Positions 2 through 64,000 of a stretch of 64,000 nt of DNA are shown here, in pieces. The position numbers were made by a program, and so were the translations under genes. The stretch covers positions 352,001-416,000 of the forward strand of contig OY760074.1 of assembly GCA_963663035.1 (NCBI GenBank), in the 5' to 3' direction. This DNA is from Acidobacteriota bacterium. GTDB lineage: Bacteria; Acidobacteriota; UBA6911; RPQK01; JADFOI01. Every line of letters starts with the position of its first letter. Within the stretch, counting starts at the first letter, position 1. The notes under the pieces were generated by a model. That model ran no database searches, had not been told where the DNA came from, and saw nothing but the letters and a program-made list of their open reading frames with translations.

Positions 2-1567
2 GAAACCTTGGGTAAGGAAGGGAAAAAACTCATTTTTCTGTTTGATGAGTTTGACGCCATCACTTCCAACTCCGCATTCGACGGCGAGTTCTTTTCCTAC
101 CTCCGATCTGCGGCCAACAACTACGCCGTGGCTTATGTGACATCTTCCAAAACGGAACTCCAGCGTCTCTGTCACTCTTCAGAGATTGCCGATTCTCCAT
201 TCTTCAACATCTTCACCAACCTCTATCTGAAACCGTTTGAGAGAGAAGAAGCAGTTGAGCTGATCACCCGGCCTTCGGAGAAGCATGGGAGTCCCTTAGA
301 TGCCTTTGTGGAAGAAATTATGGAATTGGCCGGACTCTTCCCTTTCTATTTACAGATTGCCTGTTCGATTTATTTCGATTGGCTGGAGGAAAATCCTTTT
401 AAGCCCCTCAACGACCAGGAGATCGAGACCCGCTTTCTGGAAGAAGCGGGTTCTCACTTTGAGTACTTTTGGGAACACGCTGGGTCCCAGGCCAGAGAGG
501 TGCTGACAGGCATCACCGAGGGAGTGCAACCCGGACCGGAAGAGGTTCACATCTGTCGGAGGTTCGTTCGGGAGGGATACCTGGTGGAAGAGGGTAAGGA
601 GCTTCGAATCTTTTCGCGGGTCTTTGCTGATTACATCCGATCGGTGGAACATCTCAGCCGTGAAAACAAGCCTCCCCAGACTTCCAAAATGTCTCAGAGT
701 AGCCGTCAGCTATCGCCTGGATTGAAAGTCAACCAATATGAGGTCCTGTTGAAACTGGGGGAGGGGGGCATGGGGGTTGTGTATCAGGCCCACGACACTG
801 CTCTGGACCGCAAGGTGGCTTTGAAGGTCATCAAACCTGAACTGTTGCAACAGGAGAATGCTCGAAAAAGATTTCTCCAGGAAGCGAGATCAGCTGCTGC
901 CCTGAACCATCCCGCCATCTGCGCTATTTATGAGCTTTTTGACTACGGGAATCAGGTTCTCCTGGTCATGGAATGGCTAGATGGCGAGACCCTCAGGGAC
1001 GAAGTGGATGAGGAAGGGCCTTTGGAGTGGAGGAAGCTGGTTCAGTGGTTGATCGAGGCTTGCGATGGGTTGGAAGTCGCTCATCAGCGACTCATGGTTC
1101 ATCGGGACATCAAGTCTTCAAATCTGATGATCACAACTGAGAACCATCTGAAGATTCTGGATTTTGGATTAGCAAAACATTGGGGACTGGAAAACGAGAG
1201 TACTCAGCTGACGGTTGAGGGCACCTTGGTGGGGACCCTGGGCTACGTTTCACCTGAGCAGGCTCGTGGCGACCCGGTGGATCAGCGCAGCGACCTGTTC
1301 TCCTTGGGTGTGGTGTTTTTCGAGGGCCTCACGGGAAAACTCCCCTTCCAGCGGAAAAGTACGACTGCCACACTGTACGCGATTGTGAATGAACCTGTTC
1401 CCGACCTGGCGCTTTACCAGATAGAGGATGCGGACAGGCTGGATCCTGTGATCAGAAAACTGCTGGAGAAAGCACCCGAAGACCGATATCAAAGCGCCGG
1501 GGAGTTGAAGAAAGACCTTAAACAACTGTTAAAAAAAGGAAGAGCCTTTCTTCCCTGGATCAAGTGA
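2..1567 (+). CDS. P-loop (AAA/STAND-like) ATPase fused to C-terminal Hanks-type Ser/Thr protein kinase, 5' partial
   Basis: Frame open from window edge. Walker B FLFDEFD. Kinase motifs GEGGMG, VALK, HRDIKSSN, DFG, YVSPE. Confidence 0.9.
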   Translation, partial: ETLGKEGKKLIFLFDEFDAITSNSAFDGEFFSYLRSAANNYAVAYVTSSKTELQRLCHSSEIADSPFFNIFTNLYLKPFEREEAVELITRPSEKHGSPLDAFVEEIMELAGLFPFYLQIACSIYFDWLEENPFKPLNDQEIETRFLEEAGSHFEYFWEHAGSQAREVLTGITEGVQPGPEEVHICRRFVREGYLVEEGKELRIFSRVFADYIRSVEHLSRENKPPQTSKMSQSSRQLSPGLKVNQYEVLLKLGEGGMGVVYQAHDTALDRKVALKVIKPELLQQENARKRFLQEARSAAALNHPAICAIYELFDYGNQVLLVMEWLDGETLRDEVDEEGPLEWRKLVQWLIEACDGLEVAHQRLMVHRDIKSSNLMITTENHLKILDFGLAKHWGLENESTQLTVEGTLVGTLGYVSPEQARGDPVDQRSDLFSLGVVFFEGLTGKLPFQRKSTTATLYAIVNEPVPDLALYQIEDADRLDPVIRKLLEKAPEDRYQSAGELKKDLKQLLKKGRAFLPWIK

Positions 1568-52951: not shown

Positions 52952-53548
52952 TCAACGATCTGACCGTACTACCTGCTCCAGTGCTACTTGAGGGCAGATG
53001 TTGTCTCTGATGTAGTCAATCAGATGAGTGGCCACGCCTCGAATCCTTTGCTCTATGGCTGGATCGGTGCTTTGACCTGATTCATCAAAGACCTTGTGAA
53101 CCGCGGCTACTGACACAGGTCCTGGGAGCACAATGGCCCCAACATGAGAGCAGACACTGCGTAGGTGTTCCAAAGCCTTTATGGCTCCAATGCTTCCGGC
53201 AGCTACGCCTATCAAGGCAACCGGTTTGCCACTTAACACTGATGGAAAGCCCAGGTGCTCGATGACCAATTTGATCACGCTACTATAACTACCGTGGTAT
53301 TCCGGTGTGGCAAAAATGACTCCTGTTGCATCGGAGACCTGTTGCTGCAATCTATCCATAACCGAAGAATCCTTGGCGGTGCCAGGCAAAGCCAGATCGA
53401 TTTTTGCGGGATCGATCACCTCAACGGCAGCGTCCTTGTGCTTGTTGATCTCATCGACGACTAAAGCCAAGGCTGCCGTCGTTAAATTGCCCGGACGCAC
53501 ACTCCCGATGAACGCCGCAATTCGGATGTCACAATCTTCCCTGATCAT
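52952..53548 (-). CDS. NADPH-dependent FMN reductase
   Basis: GSVRPG, ATPEYHGSYS, LSGKPVALIG. ATG 53548 has an RBS; alternative start 53584. Confidence 0.9.
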   Translation of the reverse strand: MIREDCDIRIAAFIGSVRPGNLTTAALALVVDEINKHKDAAVEVIDPAKIDLALPGTAKDSSVMDRLQQQVSDATGVIFATPEYHGSYSSVIKLVIEHLGFPSVLSGKPVALIGVAAGSIGAIKALEHLRSVCSHVGAIVLPGPVSVAAVHKVFDESGQSTDPAIEQRIRGVATHLIDYIRDNICPQVALEQVVRSDR

Positions 53549-53675
53549 GTGGCTTTCTCCTTCTTGCAGAGATTCTGACAGCATCGTGCACTGATCTCAA
53601 CACAAGAAGGAGTCTCGAACTTGTTCACCCGCTGCTGTTGGGCTAGAATCTCAGTACTGGAGAAAAGGAGAGTGC

Positions 53676-54077
53676 ATGCCATTTTCAGAGCTTGCTGATG
53701 TTCGGTTTGAAGGGGGAGGGGTGATGTTTCAGTATCTCCTCTTTGAGCTGAAAGGGGCTGCCCAGAAAAAAGCCATTGTCCGGGGTTTGAACTACAAATC
53801 CTACGAAGGTAAAACCGAGGAGCAGATCGTGAAGTGGGCCAAGGAGGAGCTGGGGGAAAGCGGCCTCTTGGAAAGTGGAGGTGAGCTCCAGATCGGGGGT
53901 GGTGGAAGCGTGTCCTTCAATACCTACTATGAGACCATCACCGTATTTGGGTCCAGCCAGACCTATGGCGTGGAAGAAGATCGAGAGGCAGTTGTAAAGC
54001 TGATAGAAACTTCATATCCGGAGCACGAGGTATCCTGGTTCAATCCCGAGTCCGCTGACTCGACTTCTAAAGAGTAA
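53676..54077 (+). CDS. Janus/Ocnus (PHPT1 phosphohistidine phosphatase)-like protein
   Basis: Ordered motifs DV...GV.FQYLL, KAIVRG, GGG.VS, ITVFGSSQTYG, YPEHEVSW resemble eukaryotic PHPT1 (recalled, not searched). Confidence 0.7.
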   Translation: MPFSELADVRFEGGGVMFQYLLFELKGAAQKKAIVRGLNYKSYEGKTEEQIVKWAKEELGESGLLESGGELQIGGGGSVSFNTYYETITVFGSSQTYGVEEDREAVVKLIETSYPEHEVSWFNPESADSTSKE

Positions 54078-54084
54078 AAAAGCC

Positions 54085-54426
54085 ATGCCTGTTGATCTTC
54101 TGAAAGACACTGCAACCATCAAGAAAACGGAACAGCGTAAGCGCAAACCTGTTGTGATCGCTGTCATCAATGACGCCTGTACGGGCTGTGCCGGCTCCCC
54201 TGCCTGTGTGGACTACTGCCCGATAGGGAACTGTATGATCTGGGTACCTGACCAGGAACATCCTCCATTCGGCCGAATAGAAGTCGACGGGCTGTTGTGC
54301 ATCGGTTGCAAGCTTTGTATCAGTAAAGGGCCGGAAGGAGCCTTTTTGGATGGCTGTCCCTGGGACGCGATCGACATGGTCTCAATCAAAGACTATGAGG
54401 CGGAATTGGGCCCCATGCCCTATTAG
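54085..54426 (+). CDS. 4Fe-4S dicluster ferredoxin
   Basis: CTGC...CVDYCP and CIGCKLC...GCPWDAI. Confidence 0.9.
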   Translation: MPVDLLKDTATIKKTEQRKRKPVVIAVINDACTGCAGSPACVDYCPIGNCMIWVPDQEHPPFGRIEVDGLLCIGCKLCISKGPEGAFLDGCPWDAIDMVSIKDYEAELGPMPY

Positions 54427-54634
54427 CCAGGACTATTCATACGCTGTCTGCTGCAGCGGCGGGATCATCCGTCCGGACTGCGCGACCCACAAGTGGGTGC
54501 CCCCGACCCGCAAGCGGGTACCCCTCGACCTTCTCGGCGTACTGCAAGAGTACGCCTGCGGGGGTCTCGGTCGCGACGCCTTGTCCTGCCGGCGCTTCCA
54601 CCGCTTCGCGACGACAGCCTATGAATAATCCGGG
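54427..54634 (+). mobile_element. Structured MITE with IS1380-type ends (208 bp)
   Basis: TIR CCAGGACTATTCATA / TATGAATAATCCGGG; the right end is identical to the IS1380 15-bp left IR. Homologous to 61289-61495. Confidence 0.85.
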
Positions 54635-54703
54635 CTAAGCGGGCTTCGCGCGCGTTTCAGGTTCCAGGTTTCAGTTGTTAGCTGTCAGGGGTTAGAGACT
54701 TTT

Positions 54704-55354
54704 ATGGCGAGACGAGTTGGACCCATTCAGCTTTCGCTTGCCGGTCTGGTCCTGGTAGCTTGTGTCGTGATTCCCTTTCTCTCCTGGCAGGGAACCTGGT
54801 TCGGGCGGCCTCTGGACGACGAGACACTCACCCAATACCTGGCTGATCAAGAAAAGTCCCGACGGGTTCAGCATGGGCTGGCTCAAATTGTTGAACGCAT
54901 GGAACGGGGTGATCCAGAAGTCGTGCAGTGGTACCAGAGCGTTGCGCAGCTCTCGGAGCACCCGGGTTCAGAGGTGCGAGTGACAGCAGCCTGGGTAATG
55001 GGCCAGGATTCAAGCTCTGATCTGTTCCACAAGGCTCTTCTTCAGATGCTTCATGATGAGGAAGTGCTGGTCAGGCGAAATGCAGCGTTATCACTGGTTC
55101 GATTTGGCGACGACAAGGGGCTAAACGAGTTGCGAGCTATGCTCACCTCCCCTGTCGATGCAGGGAAGGAACCGGTGACGCTTTCTCCAGATCCCACGCA
55201 TGTTTGGGAATCTCTGCGAGCCCTTGCCCTCATAGGGGGTGCTGATGAATTGCAGTTAGTCGACTCAGTCGCTGAGGATCCTCACTTCAGTGAGGAAGTA
55301 CGAGAACAGGCAGTGCTCACTCGAGAAGCGATTCAGGAAAGAATTCAGAAGTAA
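54704..55354 (+). CDS. Membrane-anchored HEAT-repeat protein
   Basis: N-terminal TM, VRVTAAWVMG, VRRNAALSLVRFGD. Confidence 0.85.
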   Translation: MARRVGPIQLSLAGLVLVACVVIPFLSWQGTWFGRPLDDETLTQYLADQEKSRRVQHGLAQIVERMERGDPEVVQWYQSVAQLSEHPGSEVRVTAAWVMGQDSSSDLFHKALLQMLHDEEVLVRRNAALSLVRFGDDKGLNELRAMLTSPVDAGKEPVTLSPDPTHVWESLRALALIGGADELQLVDSVAEDPHFSEEVREQAVLTREAIQERIQK

Positions 55355-55410: not shown

Positions 55411-56190
55411 TTAGCCCTCGAAGCTGAACTCGATTTCCTGGCTTTCCTCAGGTGCCACCGTTATGACCTGTTCCTGGGTGCCGTACTTCTCGTGCCAAAC
55501 TTCAATGGTGTACTCTCCCGGAGGCAGATTGGGGAGCTCAAAGCTGCCATCCTCTCCCGTGACCGCAAAGTAAGGGTGAGGGACCACACCGACGTAAGCT
55601 TTCATCCAGGGATGAATGTTGCACTTCACCGGAATCATGACCTCGGGGCGTGGGAAGGCTCTGGCCATCTCCTGACCCGCAGCTTGAGAAATGTTCCACT
55701 CCCGGTTCTGCTGGGGCAGGGGGTGAATGTTGTGAGTCGTGTCGTCACTGTTGCGGATGCTGATGTCCTGATTGGTCTGAATTCCAAAAACGTGGGGCAG
55801 GTAGACACACCCGTCCTGCTCCATCATTACGGCCTGGGTGGGAGTATCAAAACTGTATTGTTCCAAACCTGCCTTGACCCAAACAAAGGCATTTTTCAAG
55901 GTGCCATTTTCGTTTACGACCACTTCCTGCGAATAGACAGGACCGCCGTGTTTTTCTTCGCATACGGGCTCTGCACCCATACGAATACGGGCCATCTGAG
56001 GTTGTTCGCCCTGGAAGCTGACTTTGCCTGAAACCGCTCCCGCCTGGGAGAGATCAGGGGCGACTCCCTGCGCTTCCCCTGCCGGGGCCTCGTCAGTAGC
56101 CACCTCAGCAGGAGTTTCTCCTCCTCCGCAGGCAAGGGGAACACAGACTAGAAATAAAAGGGCGATGAGGTGCAGTTTATTTTTCAGCAT
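55411..56190 (-). CDS. Lipoprotein with cupredoxin-like type-1 Cu motif and carboxypeptidase-regulatory-like domain
   Basis: Lipobox PLACG, THNIH...KCNIHPWM, LPPGEYTIEVWHE. Confidence 0.85.
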   Translation of the reverse strand: MLKNKLHLIALLFLVCVPLACGGGETPAEVATDEAPAGEAQGVAPDLSQAGAVSGKVSFQGEQPQMARIRMGAEPVCEEKHGGPVYSQEVVVNENGTLKNAFVWVKAGLEQYSFDTPTQAVMMEQDGCVYLPHVFGIQTNQDISIRNSDDTTHNIHPLPQQNREWNISQAAGQEMARAFPRPEVMIPVKCNIHPWMKAYVGVVPHPYFAVTGEDGSFELPNLPPGEYTIEVWHEKYGTQEQVITVAPEESQEIEFSFEG

Positions 56191-56241
56191 TTTCTTTTCC
56201 TCTCTCAAAAAAAGTTAACCAAAAGGAGGGATTCGATCCTA

Positions 56242-59200
56242 TCATCTTCCTGTCAGCCGACGCTGCTCTGCGGCGGTGTATTGGAACATATAACGTACCA
56301 TGAGCTTGGCATGATCCTGGTCGTAGTCTCGCAAGCTGGGCACGTCGGCCAGACCAAAAACCCAGCGCTGTCCGTCCTGACGAAACAGCCCCGAAGGCAT
56401 GTTCGTCCCCGGTCTGATGATCTCGGGATGGACGATCCAGCGTTCAGTCCAGTCTGATTTGAGGCGCTCTGGGATGAGCAGGAAATTCGGCGCCGTGGCC
56501 GTCTGATCGCCCACCGGGTCTCCCGTAGCATGACACGTCAAGCAGGGAGCCGCCCGGTGAGTGAAGAGCTCTCGCGCCATGGTCAGCTCTCGAGCCGACA
56601 GGGGCTGAAGCACGGGTGCTGTGTAGGGGAGCGACTGCTTGGACAGAGCGACAAAGAAGCGGACCAGCTGCTGAATTTCGGCATTGGATAGATCGAAGGT
56701 GGGCATGCGAGCTTGAAGATAACTGCGGACGCCATTGCGGTTCAGGTCGTTCTCTTCCAGAGCCGGATTTTCCAGGAAGCGGGCCAGCCAGTTGGGATCC
56801 ACCCGGGCTCCTTCACCGACCAGGCTGGGAGGGAGCTGCTCTCGCCAGTCCGGATCCTGATAGAGCGGCAGCTCTTCCAGCACGGTTGCTTCCTGGCCTG
56901 GAGTGAATTGATGGCAGGCCACACAATTGTACTTCTTGACCAACCACCAGCCCTTCTGAATCTCGCTGCGCTCGTCCGATGGCTGGTAGAAAGAATTTTC
57001 AGGGAATTTCGAGTCCGTACTTCCCAGAAGAAAAGTGGTGAGCTGTGTGATCTCTTCAGGGCTCAAATCAAAGTTGGGCATGCGCAATCGTTCCAACGGT
57101 TCTTTGATTTTGCCCTGGTCGAAAACTACCGGATCCGCCAGTTTGCGCTCGAAGAAGCCCTTGAGGTTATACCAACCGCCGTGTTTTGCCTCTGAGGTCA
57201 AAAGTGCAAAGTCCAACCGTTCGAGTGGTTTGCTGCCCTCTTTGGTTAAGTCGGTGCCGATTTTCCCCTCATTCTCCAGTCCACTGATTTCGTGACAACC
57301 GGCACAACCGAAGTTCCGCACGAAAAATCGACCCTCTTCCAACAGTCCCGGGTCATCCATATAAGGGGCCGGGGGATATTCGGCATCTTCATGCTGCTGC
57401 GTCATCAGATAACTGGCGATATCCCTTGTTTCCTCCCAGCTCAGGCGCAAATTGGGCATGACGGTGGCCTGTTGAACGTGGAGGAGATGGTCGCCCAGTG
57501 GGCACTGATTGTGTTCCAGGTCAAATTCGAAGGACAGTCCCTGACTGGCGTAATCTTCCTCAGTGATCTCTCTCTGGTGAACGGGGCAGTAGGGGAGTGT
57601 CCGTTCGCGGGGGTTATGGATCCAGCGGACCAGATAGTCATAATTCGCTTTCTCCCCCACGCGACTGAGATTGGCGGCGAAGGTGCCCCCGCTGGCCTCG
57701 TCTCCCTCTCCCATGGAATGACAGGCCATGCAGCCGCGGGTTTCAAAGAGAGTCTGTCCCTGGACAGGATCTCCCGGGGCTTGCTCGGGCAACTCGGCCT
57801 CAATCCCCGATTGCCAGAGAAAAGCCGAGATGGCCTGTACCTGATCTTCCTCCAAGCGAAATCGGGGCATTTTGGTGGTGGGTCGAAAGTCATGGGGGTT
57901 CTGGATCCAATTCGGGACCCATTCCTTTTTCAACTTGAGCCGCACTTCTTTCAAGTTGGGACCCACCTTTTTGATGGCCATCATCAAACCTGCTTCGCGG
58001 GCTTGGAAGTCTGCAAACTCAGTATCGATGCCGGCGATACTCATGGTGAGAGCTTCGGCTTGGGCGTAAAGTCGCTCGGCTTCCTCATTGGTTTGGGCGC
58101 GGTCAGCAGTTCCTACCGTTCTCTCAATCTGCAACTGGGTCTCGTTTTTTCTGGTGAGGAGATCTGTTAGGGATTTTTGGGTGTCACGCAGTTCTCTGGA
58201 CTCCGGCTCAAAGCCTTCACGAGCGTGGCAGCCCATACAGCCCAGAGAAAAAAGTTGCTTTCCCGCATCCAGGGTAGAAGATAACTCCAGATAGCGGTCA
58301 GCTTCATGACACTGCAAGCAACCCGCTTCAAAATTCTCGGATGGATAGAGTGGCCACAACCAATGTTTATACTGGCCATGAGCCTCAGTCGTGCCGACGG
58401 TGGCAACCCCGTTGCCATTGTGACAGGGTGAGCAGCCGAAGGTCTCTGGGTCATGGATTTGAAGCAGTTCAGGGTTGGGGTGGCTGGTAAAAACGCGACT
58501 CCCTCCCATGGCTTCTCGCGTGATCAAAACGGGTTCCAGAGTGCCCACATGACAGGATTCACACCGATCGACCAGCCCCAGTTCGGCATTGTGAATTTGT
58601 TTGATCTCAATCCTGAAGTCGTCCAGGCCGTCCAGTAGGCCATCCACTTGGGTCTCGGTCAAACTGGTCAGACGAGCGTTCAGGAAAGCATCCCGTTCTC
58701 GTCTCAGCTCGGTCGAGTGTCTCAAAAGCTCCACGGTACGACCCTGGAGCTCTCCTTGCCGAGCCTTGAGGGAGTTGAATTCCTCTTCCATTTGCGCGTA
58801 AGTATAGTCGTTGCTTTCAATGTTTCCGTCAGCGTCTGGTATCTCCAGAAGATAGGGGCCTATCCTCAGCGCTTCCACGTCCCTCTCCAGCCCCTCCTTC
58901 TGGGCATCACCGGATGTTTCCAGTACATAGATAGCTGCCTGCAGGCGACTCCTCTCGGTGGTAAACGTTTTGGTGATGGCCGCCAGTTGCAGTCTGACCA
59001 GGCGCTCTTCGGCTTCGATCTCAGCCAACTCAGGTTCGATCTCTGTTTCGGCCTCCTGAAGCGCTTGCTGGAGCTCTGTATAACCTTGCGAGCCCCGAAC
59101 TTCCTGCTCTTCCTCACCCCGTCTGGGCTTCAGATCGATGAGCACCTGTTGGTAACGCTCCACAAAATCCTCCTGGAAACCAATCCAGGGACGCAGACCC

Positions 59201-59373
59201 CAAACTTCATCGTACAGGGCCCACACCAGGCTCAGGATGAGCAGCAGAGAAAAAATAGCAGTGGCTGTAGCCAGAGAGGATTTGACAATAGGATCCTCCT
59301 GGGGAATGGGTCGTTCGTCAAGTCTGGACCGTGATCGCCACCAGGACAGAAGACGTTGTACTGGATTGCTCAT
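56242..59373 (-). CDS. Membrane-anchored octaheme c-type cytochrome of the Rieske/cyt b complex
   Basis: Eight CxxCH motifs (CESCH, CSPCH, CLQCH, CMGCH, CMACH, CAGCH, CVACH, CLTCH), N-terminal TM, coiled coils. Confidence 0.93.
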   Translation of the reverse strand: MSNPVQRLLSWWRSRSRLDERPIPQEDPIVKSSLATATAIFSLLLILSLVWALYDEVWGLRPWIGFQEDFVERYQQVLIDLKPRRGEEEQEVRGSQGYTELQQALQEAETEIEPELAEIEAEERLVRLQLAAITKTFTTERSRLQAAIYVLETSGDAQKEGLERDVEALRIGPYLLEIPDADGNIESNDYTYAQMEEEFNSLKARQGELQGRTVELLRHSTELRRERDAFLNARLTSLTETQVDGLLDGLDDFRIEIKQIHNAELGLVDRCESCHVGTLEPVLITREAMGGSRVFTSHPNPELLQIHDPETFGCSPCHNGNGVATVGTTEAHGQYKHWLWPLYPSENFEAGCLQCHEADRYLELSSTLDAGKQLFSLGCMGCHAREGFEPESRELRDTQKSLTDLLTRKNETQLQIERTVGTADRAQTNEEAERLYAQAEALTMSIAGIDTEFADFQAREAGLMMAIKKVGPNLKEVRLKLKKEWVPNWIQNPHDFRPTTKMPRFRLEEDQVQAISAFLWQSGIEAELPEQAPGDPVQGQTLFETRGCMACHSMGEGDEASGGTFAANLSRVGEKANYDYLVRWIHNPRERTLPYCPVHQREITEEDYASQGLSFEFDLEHNQCPLGDHLLHVQQATVMPNLRLSWEETRDIASYLMTQQHEDAEYPPAPYMDDPGLLEEGRFFVRNFGCAGCHEISGLENEGKIGTDLTKEGSKPLERLDFALLTSEAKHGGWYNLKGFFERKLADPVVFDQGKIKEPLERLRMPNFDLSPEEITQLTTFLLGSTDSKFPENSFYQPSDERSEIQKGWWLVKKYNCVACHQFTPGQEATVLEELPLYQDPDWREQLPPSLVGEGARVDPNWLARFLENPALEENDLNRNGVRSYLQARMPTFDLSNAEIQQLVRFFVALSKQSLPYTAPVLQPLSARELTMARELFTHRAAPCLTCHATGDPVGDQTATAPNFLLIPERLKSDWTERWIVHPEIIRPGTNMPSGLFRQDGQRWVFGLADVPSLRDYDQDHAKLMVRYMFQYTAAEQRRLTGR

Positions 59374-60305
59374 ATGTTAAACCAGGGAGTGACCATGACG
59401 TTCTTGATCCGGAAGACCAGACGAAGGAACATCTTTACCGGAAGAGCCCACATGATCAGTAAGAAACTTTGTAAGGTCAGGTATTGGACAAGGGTCATTT
59501 GCTGGTAGATTTTCCGATTGAATTTATTCCAGACAAAAAGTTTGTGGGTGAGCCACCCAAAAATGACGAAATAGAGCCCCACTGCACTAGCGCCCACAAG
59601 CCCTGACCAGGGCTGGGTGGTAATGCCGAACAGCTCATGGAGGTCTCGGTTGGTCTCAAAGACCAAGCGATGGTGATCCCAGGTTTCACCGGGCCAGAAC
59701 CACATCCAGCCCGGACCCCGGATGAAGGTGCCGATAAAAACCATAGACAGCCATAAAACCATAAAACCAAAGCAGAAAGTGAGAATGGCAAACTTGCGCT
59801 GGCGAAAGGTGTAATAGCCGTTTCCCAGGGGGTTGCAGTCGACATAGGGAATGATCATCAGCCCCACCAGGATGAGAGTCGGCATCACCACACCGGCAAT
59901 CCAGGGGTCAAAGTAGACCAGCATCTCCTGGAGACCCAGAAAGTACCAGGGAGCTTTGGCCGGATTCATGGTGAGGTTGGGATTGGCCGGTTCCTCCAAC
60001 GGAGCGTTCAGGGTGATCGACCAGACCATCAGGATTCCGGTGACAATGATGGCGGTCAGAAATTCCACTCTGAGAAGGTAGGGCCAAACATAGAGCTTTT
60101 GCGCCCATCCTTCTCGATAGGGTTCAACTTTCCGGTGGTGTGTCTTGGCCAGCTCCGGATCTTTGGTCAAACGGTCAATCAGGCGATCGTTAGCCAGGGC
60201 CTGCCGAAAACCGTACCAGGTAAAGAAAGGGATCAAAAACAGAAGCGCCACGATGGGAACATTGTCAGGCGCCGAAATAATTTCCCAGAGTTGTCCCCAA
60301 TCCAT
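59370..60305 (-). CDS. Cytochrome b C-terminal (subunit IV-like) protein
   Basis: VWPYLL, APLEEPANP...NPAKAPWYFLGLQE, IPYVD. Confidence 0.88.
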   Translation of the reverse strand: MDWGQLWEIISAPDNVPIVALLFLIPFFTWYGFRQALANDRLIDRLTKDPELAKTHHRKVEPYREGWAQKLYVWPYLLRVEFLTAIIVTGILMVWSITLNAPLEEPANPNLTMNPAKAPWYFLGLQEMLVYFDPWIAGVVMPTLILVGLMIIPYVDCNPLGNGYYTFRQRKFAILTFCFGFMVLWLSMVFIGTFIRGPGWMWFWPGETWDHHRLVFETNRDLHELFGITTQPWSGLVGASAVGLYFVIFGWLTHKLFVWNKFNRKIYQQMTLVQYLTLQSFLLIMWALPVKMFLRLVFRIKNVMVTPWFNI

Positions 60306-60329
60306 TCTTTTCAGTTGCCTCCTCCCCGA

Positions 60330-61256
60330 CTACTTACGGGGAAACTTCATCTCCGATTCCAACATGACCGGGGCCGGTCCCGAAATACTTCCGTCCTTGC
60401 GGACACGCCAGAAATGCACGGTCAGGAAGATAGTGAGGATCAGGGGAATGGCAATGCAGTGCCAGATATAAGCACGCAGCAAGGCATTGGCGTCCACGAT
60501 GGATCCCCCTAAAAGCGCAAAACGCACGTCGTTGAAGGCGGTCATCCCGAGTTGAGCTCCAAAGGGGCCTTCATGGCCCAAGAGCGGTGTCGCTCGAGCC
60601 ATATTGGTTCCCACCGTCACCGCCCAGAAGCCCAACTGGTCATCGGGAAGCAGATAGCCCGTGAAGGAGAGCAGCAGGGTCAAGACCAGGCAGATCACAC
60701 CCACGGTCCAGTTGAATTCTCGCGGAGTCTTATAAGACCCGGTCAGGAAGACGCGAAACATATGCAGCCAGACCGTGATGATCATCAAGTGGGCCCCCCA
60801 GCGGTGCATATTGCGCAGCAGACCTCCAAAGGGAACATCGTTATGCAGATACATGATGTCCTGGTAGGCCTGACCCTTGGTGGGGTGATAGTAGAACATG
60901 AGAAAGACGCCGGTGATGGTCAGAACGATGAAAAGATAAAGGGTGATACCACCCATCCCCCAGGTAAAACCGAAACGGATGGCATCGCGATTCACCTTAG
61001 CCGGCTGCACGTGCAGGAAGACGTTGGTCAGGACCGCCAGGGCCCGGCTGCGGGGGGTCTCATCCAGTTTGTGGCGGAAGATCGATTTCCACAGTTGGGT
61101 CCGCTTGTAGTCTTTGGCTGCCTTAAGGTCTTGCATTCCTTTCGCGATGAAAGGATTCAAGGCTTCTTTGAGGCGGTCAATCAGAGAGGACGGCCCCGCT
61201 GAGCTCTGCTCTCCTGACTTGGATTCTTCTCTCTTGCTCTTAGCGTCGTCGTTCAT
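60330..61256 (-). CDS. petB: Cytochrome b6-like N-terminal subunit
   Basis: [22 protein letters not shown]...[15 protein letters not shown]...VHF. Confidence 0.92.
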
Positions 61257-61288
61257 GGGTCACTTGTGGTGAGGAACTGCCAGGTAAG

Positions 61289-61495
61289 CCCTGATTATGC
61301 ATAGGTTCTCGTCATGAAGCGGCGGAAGTGCCGACCTGGCAAGGCGCGTGACCCGCAAGCGGGTGCCCCAGGCTCCCGCAAACGTACTCTTGAGTACGTT
61401 GAGGAGGCCGAGGGGTACCCGCATGTGCGGGTCGCGCAACGCTGGCAGGGCGGATGATTTCGCCGCTGCAGTAGAGAACTTATTCATAATCAGGG
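61289..61495 (-). mobile_element. Structured MITE with IS1380-type ends (207 bp) inside the respiratory operon
   Basis: TIR CCCTGATTATG(C/A)ATA at both ends. Abuts the Rieske TAG stop. Homologous to 54427-54634. Confidence 0.85.
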
Positions 61496-62065
61496 CTATA
61501 CACCCGTCAAGGAAGCACCATCATCTTCGAAGTGGCAGGTCGCTCCCGGGGCACACTGATAGAGCTGACTGGCGTCCACCACGATCTGCCCTTCAGCATC
61601 GAGCTCCAGATTTGCCCGGTCCATCGGCCGGGGCGCAGGACCTTCAAAATTAATCCCTTCGCTGTCGTATCCGCTGCCATGGCAGGGGCATTTAAATTTG
61701 TTCTCGCTCTCCACCCAATCGGGAGTGCAGCCCAGATGTGTACATTTGGCGTAGATGACAAAAAGTCCCTGGGTGTTCCGAACGACCCAGATCCGATGCT
61801 TCTGCTGAAATCGAGTATCGACCCCAAAACCGAAATCTGAAGGAGGGCCAATTCGGAATTTGGTCTTGGGTTCGAAGAGAGTTCGAGGAAAGAAAAAACG
61901 CATGGCCATCAGTAGATTGACGCCAATAAATCCAAAGACACAGGTCCAGGCGAACTTGCGTCGGTGGATGAGTTGCTTTTCGCTGGGACCCTGCTTGTCT
62001 TCACCGACCCCTTGCGCTTGATCTTCCTGTTGAACCTGGTCTTCTTGGGTCTTTTCTTCCGCCAT
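61496..62065 (-). CDS. petC: Rieske [2Fe-2S] subunit
   Basis: Twin-Arg HRRKF with TM, CTHLGC, CPCHGS, GPAPRP. Confidence 0.95.
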
Positions 62066-62148
62066 AGTGAGAACCTACGTTTAAGCGTTACAACTTATAT
62101 TCTGTTCCGGAACTCTGTCAAGATTTTCCTCTACTGGTTTTCTGCCGG

Positions 62149-62418
62149 CTATTTGTCCTGTCGAAAGGTGATAAAGAGTATCGTTGACATAATCGTAATC
62201 GGGGGAATTAAAAGCACTAAGATACCCATTTTCACGGCCTCAATGGCGCTCTCCGCCTGACCCTCCAGGGCAGTCCTGCACATGGCGCAGCCCTGGGCTG
62301 CGGCCGGGGAGGAGAAAAACAGAAGGAACAAACAGGAAAAGAACAAGAGAGGAAGGATGGAGTGCTGTGCTTTCCTCCTCTTTTGTGTTCCGGTGTTCAT
62401 TGGGTTCATTGCTCTCAT
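62149..62418 (-). CDS. Small membrane protein with CxxC (QGCAMC), oxidase-operon associated
   Basis: Signal/TM-QGCAMC-TM. Only the last 89 aa of the long track ORF is plausible. Confidence 0.75.
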   Translation of the reverse strand: MRAMNPMNTGTQKRRKAQHSILPLLFFSCLFLLFFSSPAAAQGCAMCRTALEGQAESAIEAVKMGILVLLIPPITIMSTILFITFRQDK

Positions 62419-62420
62419 CG

Positions 62421-62726
62421 TTACCTGCGCAGTTCCAGGAGCCTCAAGCTGTCGGGGAAGAAAATAAACAGTAAGGCGATGCAGATCACCACAGCCGGAA
62501 TGAGCGTCAGTGTGAGGCTGAGCTTCTCGAATCGAAGATGCATAAAGTAGGCTACAATCAATCCCGTCTTGATCAGAGAAAAGCCTACCAGGAGGATCAG
62601 CATCGGAGTCACAGGAATAGCCAGATAAGCCAGGATCACTTCTGCGATCGTCAAGGCCAGCAACCCCACCCAAACCGTCAGGTAAAGCCGGTTGCCATGA
62701 CTTTGATGTGCTGCTTCCATATTCAT
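62421..62726 (-). CDS. ctaF: Cytochrome c oxidase subunit IV (caa3-type)
   Basis: YLTVWVGLLALTIAEV, KTGLIVAYFMHLRFE. Confidence 0.9.
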   Translation of the reverse strand: MNMEAAHQSHGNRLYLTVWVGLLALTIAEVILAYLAIPVTPMLILLVGFSLIKTGLIVAYFMHLRFEKLSLTLTLIPAVVICIALLFIFFPDSLRLLELRR

Positions 62727-62749
62727 CTTGCTGGGCTCTCCTTGGTTGT

Positions 62750-63373
62750 TCAAATCTTCCAGGACAGCAGGTAGACCATGGGAAAAATAAACATCCAAAC
62801 CAGGTCCACGAAATGCCAGTAAAGTCCGCTGATTTCCACGTCCTCGGAAGTAAACTTTCCCTTTCCGAACCCCCAGGCAATCACTCCCAGGTAGATGACG
62901 CCGCCTGTGACGTGGGTCATGTGAAGACCGGTTAAGGTGAAGAAGGATGCACCGAAGAGCGGAGCTCCCCAGGGATTGCCAAAGGGTGTCACTCCTTCAT
63001 GGATCAGCTCCAGCCACTCGTTGGTGTGCAGGATAATAAAGAGTACCCCCCCCAGGATGGTGGCTAAAAGCCAGCCCACGGTCCGCCGTAGCTCCTTTTG
63101 CTTGGCTGCTGCTACAGCCATGACCATGGTTAAAGAGCTGGAGAGCAGACAGAAGGTCATCACGCTGGCCATGAAAATACTGAAGCCTTCAAAGGGCCTC
63201 GGCCAGTCTTCACTGGCAACGCGCACAAAGCTGTAAGCTATCAGCATCGCCGAAAAAGTCAGTGTATCGGAGAGAAGGAAAAGCCACATCCCTAATTTAT
63301 TCGAGCCAATGGCGTAGGGAGATCTTCCGCCTCCCCAGGCAGAGAGCCTGGTCTCACTTACCATGTCAGCCAT
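62750..63373 (-). CDS. ctaE: Heme-copper oxidase subunit III
   Basis: KLGMWLFLLSD, FFTLTGLHMTHV, GLYWHFVDLVW. Confidence 0.93.
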   Translation of the reverse strand: MADMVSETRLSAWGGGRSPYAIGSNKLGMWLFLLSDTLTFSAMLIAYSFVRVASEDWPRPFEGFSIFMASVMTFCLLSSSLTMVMAVAAAKQKELRRTVGWLLATILGGVLFIILHTNEWLELIHEGVTPFGNPWGAPLFGASFFTLTGLHMTHVTGGVIYLGVIAWGFGKGKFTSEDVEISGLYWHFVDLVWMFIFPMVYLLSWKI

Positions 63374-63377
63374 CCAT

Positions 63378-64000
63378 TTACCTCCAGATCAGAAGCAGGA
63401 GAAACAGGTAAATCCACAACCCGTCCATGAAATGCCAGTAGAGCGCAGTCACACCCAGGGTGGTTTCTCCCAGACCACCAGAGTTCCTCCGCCACACTTT
63501 CCAGGAAAGGTAGGAAAGGGCCATCACGCCTCCTAAGAGGTGGACGCCATGAGTTCCCGTTAATAAATAGAAAAAGGAGCTGCTGGGATTCGTGCTGATG
63601 TATACTCCACCCGCCACCAGTTCCCGCCAGGCCAGGAGCTGTCCAACCAGGAAGCTTACCCCCAAGCCAGTGGTCGCCCACCACCAGCGTTGAAAATGAG
63701 CTTGGTTATGACGCCAGCGACGAGCTTTTTCGAAAGTCAGACTACTGGCCAGCAGAATCAGTGTGTTGGGCCACAAAATTCCCGGGAGTGCTATAGGGAG
63801 CCAGTCATCGGACAGGCCCTTGCGGACAACGTAAGCACTGGTAAAGGCAGCAAAAACCATCAGGATAGCGGCCAATCCAAGCATCATGCCAGTATAGTAT
63901 CTCCGATCGGGAAGAGATGCGGGGCTGTCAGATCCGTCTCCCTGATTGCCACCCAAACCACCTCCAGCAACACCGCCACCTTTTCCTCCTGGTGATATCG
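63378..64000 (-). CDS. ctaE: Second heme-copper oxidase subunit III paralog, 5' partial
   Basis: FAAFTSAY, FFYLLTGTHGVH, LYWHFMDGLW. Frame open to window edge. Confidence 0.9.
   Translation of the reverse strand, partial: ISPGGKGGGVAGGGLGGNQGDGSDSPASLPDRRYYTGMMLGLAAILMVFAAFTSAYVVRKGLSDDWLPIALPGILWPNTLILLASSLTFEKARRWRHNQAHFQRWWWATTGLGVSFLVGQLLAWRELVAGGVYISTNPSSSFFYLLTGTHGVHLLGGVMALSYLSWKVWRRNSGGLGETTLGVTALYWHFMDGLWIYLFLLLLIWR

Follow-up and report, generated by a model that had tools for sequence, protein, structure and literature searches.

The PHPT1 fold is best known from a phosphohistidine phosphatase, and here we describe a bacterial clade of this family that has lost the catalytic histidine and is encoded next to a ferredoxin. 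The clade member in question (the PHPT1-like protein) is encoded in a 64,000-nucleotide stretch of DNA, hereafter the window, from an Acidobacteriota bacterium (GenBank assembly GCA_963663035.1, contig OY760074.1, positions 352,001 to 416,000), and its gene lies directly upstream of a gene for a 2x[4Fe-4S] dicluster ferredoxin (Table 1). Computation establishes its homology to PHPT1 and its fold, a histidine loss that extends across the clade, and a constant gene order. The best-supported mechanism is that of a pseudo-phosphatase that would bind the co-encoded ferredoxin via its former substrate cleft, to which we assign a probability of roughly 0.55. The original prediction, made from the letters of the window, had proposed a pseudo-phosphatase or a repurposed fold, and this is still the best reading of the sequence given the clade-wide histidine loss, the PHPT1 fold and the link to the ferredoxin.

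Results

The PHPT1-like protein is a genuine member of the PHPT1 (PF05005) sequence and fold family. In a Pfam-A profile search it matches PF05005 (Janus/Ocnus) with an E-value of 2e-10 and 41.1 bits, above the gathering cut-off of 23 bits, across residues 7-117 and profile positions 5-107 of 108, and PF05005 is matched singly by 21 of 21 diverse clade members. The only significant sequence matches among all PDB chains, searched with HMMER, are to human PHPT1 (2ai6, 2nmm and 2hw4; E 5e-6 to 7.3e-6), and no NCBIfam family model matches the protein. Two other candidates, VacA2 in Pfam (E 0.14, below the cut-off) and a nanobody in the PDB (E 0.19), were rejected as chance matches to the Gly-rich loop. 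The motif pairings with human PHPT1 that had originally been proposed are all recovered in the HMMER alignment, namely DVRFEGGGVMFQYLL/DVDIDSDGVFKYVL, IVRG/IVRG, GGGSVS/GGGRIS, ITVFGSSQTYG/IHVYGYSMAYG and YPEHEVSWFN/YPDYEVTWAN. The same alignment pairs SYEGK with the catalytic EYHAD, with E44 opposite His53, and sets Q19 opposite Lys21 and S78 opposite Arg78, as had also been proposed.

An AlphaFold2 model built on a 21-sequence alignment of the clade (alignment A2) has a mean predicted local distance difference test score (pLDDT) of 78.9 and a predicted template modelling score of 0.72, and pLDDT falls below 50 only in the last six residues (128-133). PHPT1 is the sole fold match of this model: ranks 1-5 of a Foldseek search against the PDB are all PHPT1 chains (E 8.6e-10 to 9.6e-8; template modelling scores of 0.69/0.78 for 2hw4), followed by rank 6 at E 0.12. 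VIA-align, which is independent of Foldseek and covered 48,161 representative chains, gives PHPT1 a Z-score of 14.1 (root-mean-square deviation 2.2 Å over 111 aligned residues, 26% identity), with the next match at Z 5.0. Because profile, solved structures and predicted fold all return PHPT1, the homology is secure, and the outcome that would have refuted the original prediction, a lack of any significant profile or structural match, did not occur.

A protein search with a word index identified 33 relatives at E <= 0.001 among 44 candidates; 32 of the 33 had been assigned to PF05005 by a precomputed tag, and any name they bear is 'hypothetical protein', from Acidobacteria metagenome-assembled genomes (MAGs). 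The Pfam model has a match in 27 of 41 related genomes (26 above the cut-off) and in 0 of 14 control genomes. An even phylum-wide sample of 401 genomes has 14 matches, all of them in the window's own order, and the genomes of the same class and phylum outside that order have none. The model undercounts, given that two genomes of the same order (G036 and G218) are missed by it yet are positive with a clade-specific hidden Markov model. When 1.84 billion cluster representatives were searched exhaustively with HMMER and the A2 profile, 171 reached E <= 0.001, 22 of them <= 1e-10 and 15 <= 1e-30, with a steep fall in score after approximately 21 representatives. In a quick maximum-likelihood tree of 106 rows, with support from the Shimodaira-Hasegawa-like approximate likelihood ratio test (SH-aLRT) only, 17 full-length representatives of the top group fall on one side of a branch of length 0.72 (SH-aLRT 100), whereas the sister group of the clade is left without resolution. 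The His-less clade thus has a single origin and, in the genomes sampled, is confined to one order of Acidobacteriota.

Column statistics were taken from 144 listed hits of 300 amino acids (aa) or less, aligned to the A2 profile and divided into clade and non-clade rows. The His53 column itself holds a histidine in none of 20 clade rows and in 49 of 100 non-clade rows, and columns 41-50 hold one at any position in a single clade row (1/20; P0165, in the next column) compared with 93/100. The Arg78 column is Ser or Thr in 18 of 19 clade rows (non-clade 10/121) and Arg or Lys in none of the 19 (non-clade 66/121). Arginine at the Arg45 column, by contrast, is kept on both sides (18/18 and 98/100). 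Within A2, whose sequences are 37-89% identical to the window protein, the His53 column reads A in five sequences, R in five, E in four, Q in two and L, D, S, G or V in one each, so no conserved residue has taken the place of the His53 base in the clade. The Lys21 column is Q in eight, K in six, R in six and I in one, the Arg78 column is S or T in 21/21, and R36, at the Arg45 position, is invariant in 21/21. Histidine is invariant in no column of A2; the only histidine of the window protein, H117, is shared by 17/21. At the His102 position the pairwise alignment with PHPT1 places D102 and the profile alignment of the relatives suggests R103 instead, neither being a histidine. The absence of the catalytic histidine, which the original prediction had noted in a single protein, is therefore a property of the whole clade.

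In PHPT1, Arg45, Lys21 and Arg78 are the phosphate ligands. His53 is the proposed general base, and both His53 and His102 are described as important for activity (PMC11277029). When compared with these features of the enzyme class, the window protein has the Arg45 equivalent (R36), but has E44 in place of the general base and Q19 and S78 in place of Lys21 and Arg78. Given that the His53 column holds no histidine and that His53 and His102 are both described as important in PHPT1, a PHPT1-type mechanism appears very unlikely in the clade. Since two defining features, His53 and Arg78, are absent from its sequence, the window protein should not be annotated as a phosphohistidine phosphatase, and more generally a PF05005 match should not transfer that name.

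The protein could still be an enzyme, acting as a phosphatase or phosphotransferase with another catalytic set (for example R36, R103, E100 and Y43) on a phospho-protein or a small phospho-compound of the ferredoxin and HEAT-repeat system, although we consider this unlikely. R36, the GGG loop, N39, N82, Y84 and R103 are invariant and resemble a pocket under selection, the E-x-D-R motif with R103 is common to the His-retaining relatives, E100 and Y43 are near-invariant in the clade, and the Lys21 column is K or R in 12/21 clade members. However, the general base is absent and its column unconstrained, no clade member has a basic residue at the Arg78 column, no alternative His, Cys or Asp nucleophile is found among the invariant columns, and the complex predicted below buries the cleft against the ferredoxin.

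A decaying relic without function would also have lost its catalytic residues, but such a relic is very improbable: the frame is open, with no in-frame stops, in 27/27 genome matches, A2 retains 15 invariant columns across the order (M1, G15, V16, Y20, L21, R36, N39, L59, G75-G77, N82, Y84, G92 and R103), the confident model matches PHPT1, and the gene has a good Shine-Dalgarno motif. The open frames and invariant columns indicate that the gene is probably still under selection. Two observations concern variation in length. One clade member (L026:1351-2010) has an insertion of approximately 17 residues inside the domain compared with the profile, which may be genuine or may reflect a fault in the assembly or the frame. 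In other families of the order, many clade members (among L015-L026, for example L016:1276-1887, L018:1462-2073 and L025:1492-1959) carry low-complexity C-terminal tails of 30-70 residues, rich in K/A/E or R/P/K, whereas the tail of the window protein is short and of acidic/Ser type.

The view in the original prediction that the family is generally eukaryotic is out of date, given that the 93 non-clade relatives with a histidine in the catalytic segment come from a metagenome and genome library and one lies in a bacterial MAG. The MAG is one of Candidatus Saccharibacteria, and the gene for this relative (P0194) lies on a contig of 71 kb (locus L064). The non-clade matches are mostly metagenomic proteins; of nine clusters looked up, a tick protein is the only one whose name is eukaryotic, and another bears a seemingly wrong Joint Genome Institute name. 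The Pfam taxonomic profile of PF05005 is mainly cyanobacterial according to the available text of PMC10989767. In fifteen His-retaining proteins the residues equivalent to Arg45, His53 and the GGG loop are invariant, together with an E-P-D-R motif in which the Arg is the counterpart of R103 in the window protein, and these common motifs suggest, at the level of sequence, that the acidobacterial clade descends from a His-bearing prokaryotic stock. As side observations, a 120-aa His-retaining protein (P0176) has the source name 'methylmalonyl-CoA mutase cobalamin-binding subunit' and looks mis-annotated, and the distant matches to the A2 profile include giant proteins with several PHPT1-like modules (P0184, of 2022 aa with 16 matched stretches, and P0188, P0189, P0240, P0266 and P0302).

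The ferredoxin gene is the constant neighbour. In the window the gap between the two genes is 7 bp (stop at 54077, ATG at 54085), exactly as originally noted. Of 26 PHPT1-like loci, 25 have the ferredoxin gene as the next gene downstream on the same strand, at distances of -1 to 150 bp. The 26 loci include the window's own and two that are identical over the gene (L008 and L009); in the 26th the contig edge falls one base after the PHPT1-like stop. A gene for a HEAT-repeat protein is the usual third member, found in 22/26 loci. All 14 of the 20-kb regions from the same order carry this trio, and in 13 of the 14 the HEAT gene is <=500 bp from the ferredoxin gene. A promoter and terminator scan around the PHPT1-like/ferredoxin pair gave nothing above shuffle expectation.

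The ferredoxin scores 27.5 bits against Pfam Fer4_7 (cut-off 27), with the other Fer4 models below their cut-offs; NCBIfam gives sub-threshold generic Fe-S matches only and no equivalog-level match, and a sequence search of the PDB gives no solved relative at E <= 0.01. Its cluster motifs are C32-x2-C35-x5-C41-x3-C45-P and C72-x2-C75-x2-C78-x12-C91-P, and the eight cysteines are invariant in the 21 sequences of its alignment (A3); the basic N-terminal tail RKRKP and the C-terminal tail LGPxPY are conserved. It is 113 aa long in 24 of 25 loci and 111 aa in one, and it is much more conserved than the PHPT1-like protein (64-90% identity across the set versus 37-89%). The ferredoxin family is also the wider of the two, with at least 1030 clusters, including Terriglobia, compared with 33. 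In a phylum sample of 201 genomes, 17 have the ferredoxin, nine in the window's order and eight in other classes. The PHPT1-like gene is upstream in 9/9 of the same-order genomes. Given that the ferredoxin is broader in distribution and, within ~1.5 kb of flank, partnerless in other classes, the PHPT1-like gene seems to have joined an older ferredoxin-HEAT unit in this order alone.

Several further elements were observed around the trio. A dispersed repeat of approximately 135 bp lies between the ferredoxin and HEAT genes; a 241-bp query matched 44 places in the genome of the window (243 first-look candidates), for the most part at 72-93% identity, and depth over the repeat in a DNA metagenome run rises from ~20 to ~2900. 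In two close relatives (L008 and L009) the spacer between the two genes is much shorter. In several families of the order (among L015-L026, for example L016:2256-2528, L018:817-1092 and L021:813-1082) the PHPT1-like gene has just upstream of it a small conserved Cys-containing open reading frame (ORF) of ~85-90 aa with an N-terminal pattern ending in C-x2-C-W, which we take to resemble zinc-finger anti-sigma factors. The divergent gene for an NADPH-dependent FMN reductase is found only in the closest relatives (L007-L009) and so is outside the conserved unit.

The ferredoxin is also predicted to bind the PHPT1-like protein. In the complex that was modelled, the ferredoxin (A3) with two riding [4Fe-4S] clusters was paired with the PHPT1-like protein (A2; residues 1-126), which gave a median interface score (ipSAE) of 0.72 (runs 0.73, 0.65 and 0.72) compared with 0.00 for the best of three controls, a verdict of 'supports binding'. 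The ipSAE mark is reached by 58/80 solved complexes and 2/110 mismatched pairs, counts that are only rough here because custom alignments and small molecules were used. The runs share >=85% of contacts, with a partner pLDDT of >=82. Confident contacts fall at residues 14-17, 19, 40-41, 45, 47, 77-78, 80, 82-85, 89, 91-93, 95, 122 and 124-125 of the PHPT1-like chain and at residues 27-29, 48-49, 52-54, 66-71 and 106-112 of the ferredoxin, the last being its C-terminal tail. Since the positions listed for the PHPT1-like chain coincide with or lie beside the columns of Lys21, His53, the GGGR loop and Ser94, the predicted docking site is the former active-site face. We know of no solved PHPT1-ferredoxin complex and the PDB searches returned none, so it is unlikely that the prediction passed through a memorised structure.

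It is improbable that the two are operon neighbours only, with the PHPT1-like protein having an unrelated role and no contact with the ferredoxin. On its own, adjacency argues only weakly for binding, the complex test was passed by 7 of 44 blind-picked neighbours, and the ferredoxin family counts >1000 clusters against 33 PHPT1-like ones; however, the adjacency is kept at 37-89% identity in 25/26 loci and 14/14 wider regions, and the complex scores 0.72 against 0.00 in controls. Near-universal adjacency together with a complex prediction that passes its controls points to the functional tie to the ferredoxin that had originally been suggested.

We consider it quite unlikely that the protein is instead a small-ligand sensor, regulating the ferredoxin or the HEAT-repeat protein according to whether phosphate, some other anion or a nucleotide occupies the former phosphate pocket. 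The Arg45 equivalent and the Gly-rich phosphate loop are kept, the gene is tightly coupled to that of the ferredoxin, and PHPT1 binds free phosphate in this pocket (PMC11277029). Against such a role, of the three basic phosphate ligands two have been lost or vary, and the pocket overlaps with the predicted interface.

Table 1 Features of the window at and around the PHPT1-like gene. Positions are those of the window unless residues are stated.
Feature	Position	Strand	Remarks
NADPH-dependent FMN reductase gene	52952-53584	-	PF03358, E 5.9e-29; divergent, upstream
Shine-Dalgarno-like AAGGAG	53665-53670	+	5 nt before the PHPT1-like ATG; read from sequence
PHPT1/Janus-Ocnus-fold gene	53676-54077	+	133 aa, ATG start, TAA stop; ORF read from sequence
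PHPT1-like protein, fold	residues ~7-122		
PHPT1-like protein, disordered acidic/Ser tail	residues 123-133		
PHPT1-like protein, key residues	Q19, R36, Y43-E44, G75-G77-S78, D102-R103		Q19, Lys21 position; R36, Arg45; Y43-E44, Tyr52-His53; G75-G77-S78, GGGR loop
2x[4Fe-4S] dicluster ferredoxin-like gene	54085-54426	+	113 aa, ATG at 54085; Fer4_7; predicted binding partner
Dispersed repeat	54504-54640		~135 bp
HEAT-repeat protein gene	54704-55354	+	216 aa; one N-terminal hydrophobic helix; HEAT_2 (PBS-lyase type), Pfam E 4.8e-15
Convergent respiratory operon	55411-63956	-	Pfam, NCBIfam; loose context
CarboxypepD_reg-like lipoprotein	55411-56208	-	
c-type cytochrome	56242-59373	-	1043 aa; 8 CxxCH motifs in relatives
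Cytochrome b, C-part	59370-60305	-	
Cytochrome b, N-part	60330-61256	-	
Rieske	61496-62065	-	
Further ORF of the respiratory operon	62149-62880	-	
Two COX3-like genes	62750-63373, 63378-63956	-	

The PHPT1-like gene had been described as facing a respiratory operon, and the convergent operon downstream is indeed respiratory; as a constant link this does not hold, because its genes lie within 10 kb in only 2 of the 14 same-order regions. The respiratory operon is ruled out as a constant partner on these counts, the constant partners being the ferredoxin and the HEAT gene. It adjoins the trio in close kin (L009-L013 and L054), and in one further locus (L004) genes for cytochrome c and the lipoprotein precede the PHPT1-like/ferredoxin pair on the same strand. 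In four of six regions from other classes, some respiratory genes are near the ferredoxin, which there has no PHPT1-like partner. This difference, 2/14 in the same order but 4/6 in other classes, is suggestive of a respiration link for the ferredoxin-HEAT unit, one that the PHPT1-like gene does not consistently share. In the part of the operon at 56242-61256 (-), the split cytochrome b has a b6/PetD-like arrangement and the 1043-aa c-type cytochrome is unusually large with a long N-terminal coiled-coil-like region; homologues at 48% identity occur in another acidobacterial class.

Discussion

In the mechanism that we favour, the clade would have kept the fold, Arg45 and the Gly-rich loop, while the general base His53 and the phosphate-binding Arg78 are gone, and we infer that the removal of phosphate from histidine has most likely been lost. 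The former substrate cleft would have become a protein-protein surface that binds the 113-aa 2x[4Fe-4S] ferredoxin, which is probably translated from the same message, 7 bp downstream. Together they would form a two-protein ferredoxin module, in which the PHPT1-like protein may be a stable subunit, an adaptor or a maturation chaperone, and which may act alongside the membrane-anchored HEAT-repeat protein encoded nearby, perhaps in respiratory electron transfer. A more specific version is possible but doubtful: that the cleft was converted to an iron-sulfur docking surface and that the pair is a new subunit pair of an acidobacterial membrane electron-transfer module which, with the HEAT protein, feeds or regulates the Rieske/cytochrome b-oxidase chain.

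Several points weigh against a ferredoxin-binding pseudo-phosphatase. The predicted binding comes from one structure-prediction score, which is model confidence rather than measurement. The interface is not significantly more conserved than the remainder of the protein, either by mean top-residue frequency (0.70 versus 0.61, one-sided Mann-Whitney p 0.07) or by the share of residues that are >=90% conserved (7/24 versus 16/101, Fisher p 0.11), and the invariant R36, N39 and R103 are outside the listed contacts and could be marks of a kept ligand pocket. In other classes a PHPT1-like ORF is found in 0 of 8 ferredoxin loci within a flank of ~1.5 kb, and by eye the predicted contact segments of those ferredoxins look similar; the ferredoxin therefore has no strict need of a PHPT1-like partner. 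The HEAT-repeat protein may, from its sequence, be on the periplasmic side of the membrane. Finally, contigs from RNA libraries (X1, X2 and X9, from two metatranscriptome runs) match exactly only at 54216-54471, within part of the ferredoxin gene, and do not cover 53676-54077; their low depth cannot show absence, strand or co-transcription, DNA may be present, and they say nothing on whether the two genes are co-transcribed.

The PHPT1 fold has only one assigned activity. If the ferredoxin-binding reading is true, this would be the first pseudo-enzyme of the fold and its first job other than that of a phosphatase. The conserved His-less clade, with its gene tied to that of the ferredoxin, is a natural experiment on what the PHPT1 cleft recognises, and the PHPT1-like protein is a candidate new accessory protein for a widespread acidobacterial ferredoxin. 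The finding opens no long-standing question. What is new here is the histidine loss together with the ferredoxin link, given that prokaryotic His-retaining relatives already exist. In the literature searched, with subscription journals and supplements outside reach, we found no pseudo-enzyme of the PHPT1 family and no description of a His-less or ferredoxin-linked PHPT1 relative.

Among known systems, human PHPT1 (PDB 2HW4, 2NMM and 2AI6) is in the same Pfam family and has the same alpha/beta fold over nearly the whole chain, and it shares with the window protein Arg45, the GGG loop, Tyr52 and the C-terminal YP-x-x-EV-x-W. The window protein differs in Glu for His53, Ser for Arg78, Gln for Lys21 and Asp-Arg at His102, by an insertion of ~10 residues after helix 1, and in its operon context with a ferredoxin; judging from these residues it is probably no phosphatase. 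The His-retaining prokaryotic proteins (for example P0190 and P0194) share the family, a similar size, the Arg45 equivalent, the GGG loop and the E-P-D-R motif with the R103-equivalent Arg. Unlike the clade, they keep the invariant histidine and usually have R or K at the Arg78 column (66/121), and they are probably the stock of the acidobacterial clade, although the tree does not resolve which of them is its sister group. Drosophila Janus-A, Janus-B and Ocnus, which are animal, testis-expressed proteins, are the founding members of PF05005; compared by description only, they share the family with the window protein but not the ferredoxin context. Ocnus is treated as the fly PHPT1 in the available text of PMC13602238, and PHPT1 itself as a mammalian or animal enzyme in that of two reviews (PMC11277029 and PMC7948535). 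The known bacterial route to phosphohistidine removal is SixA, of the histidine phosphatase superfamily (PMC7948535), which differs from the window protein in fold and family; in Pfam and NCBIfam the window protein has no match to that superfamily. The closest parallel in logic is with the pseudophosphatases that have inactive protein tyrosine phosphatase domains, such as PTPRU (PMC7320164, available text): their fold and chemistry are unrelated to those of the window protein, but they too have kept the fold and the substrate surface, lost the catalytic residue and been reused for binding.

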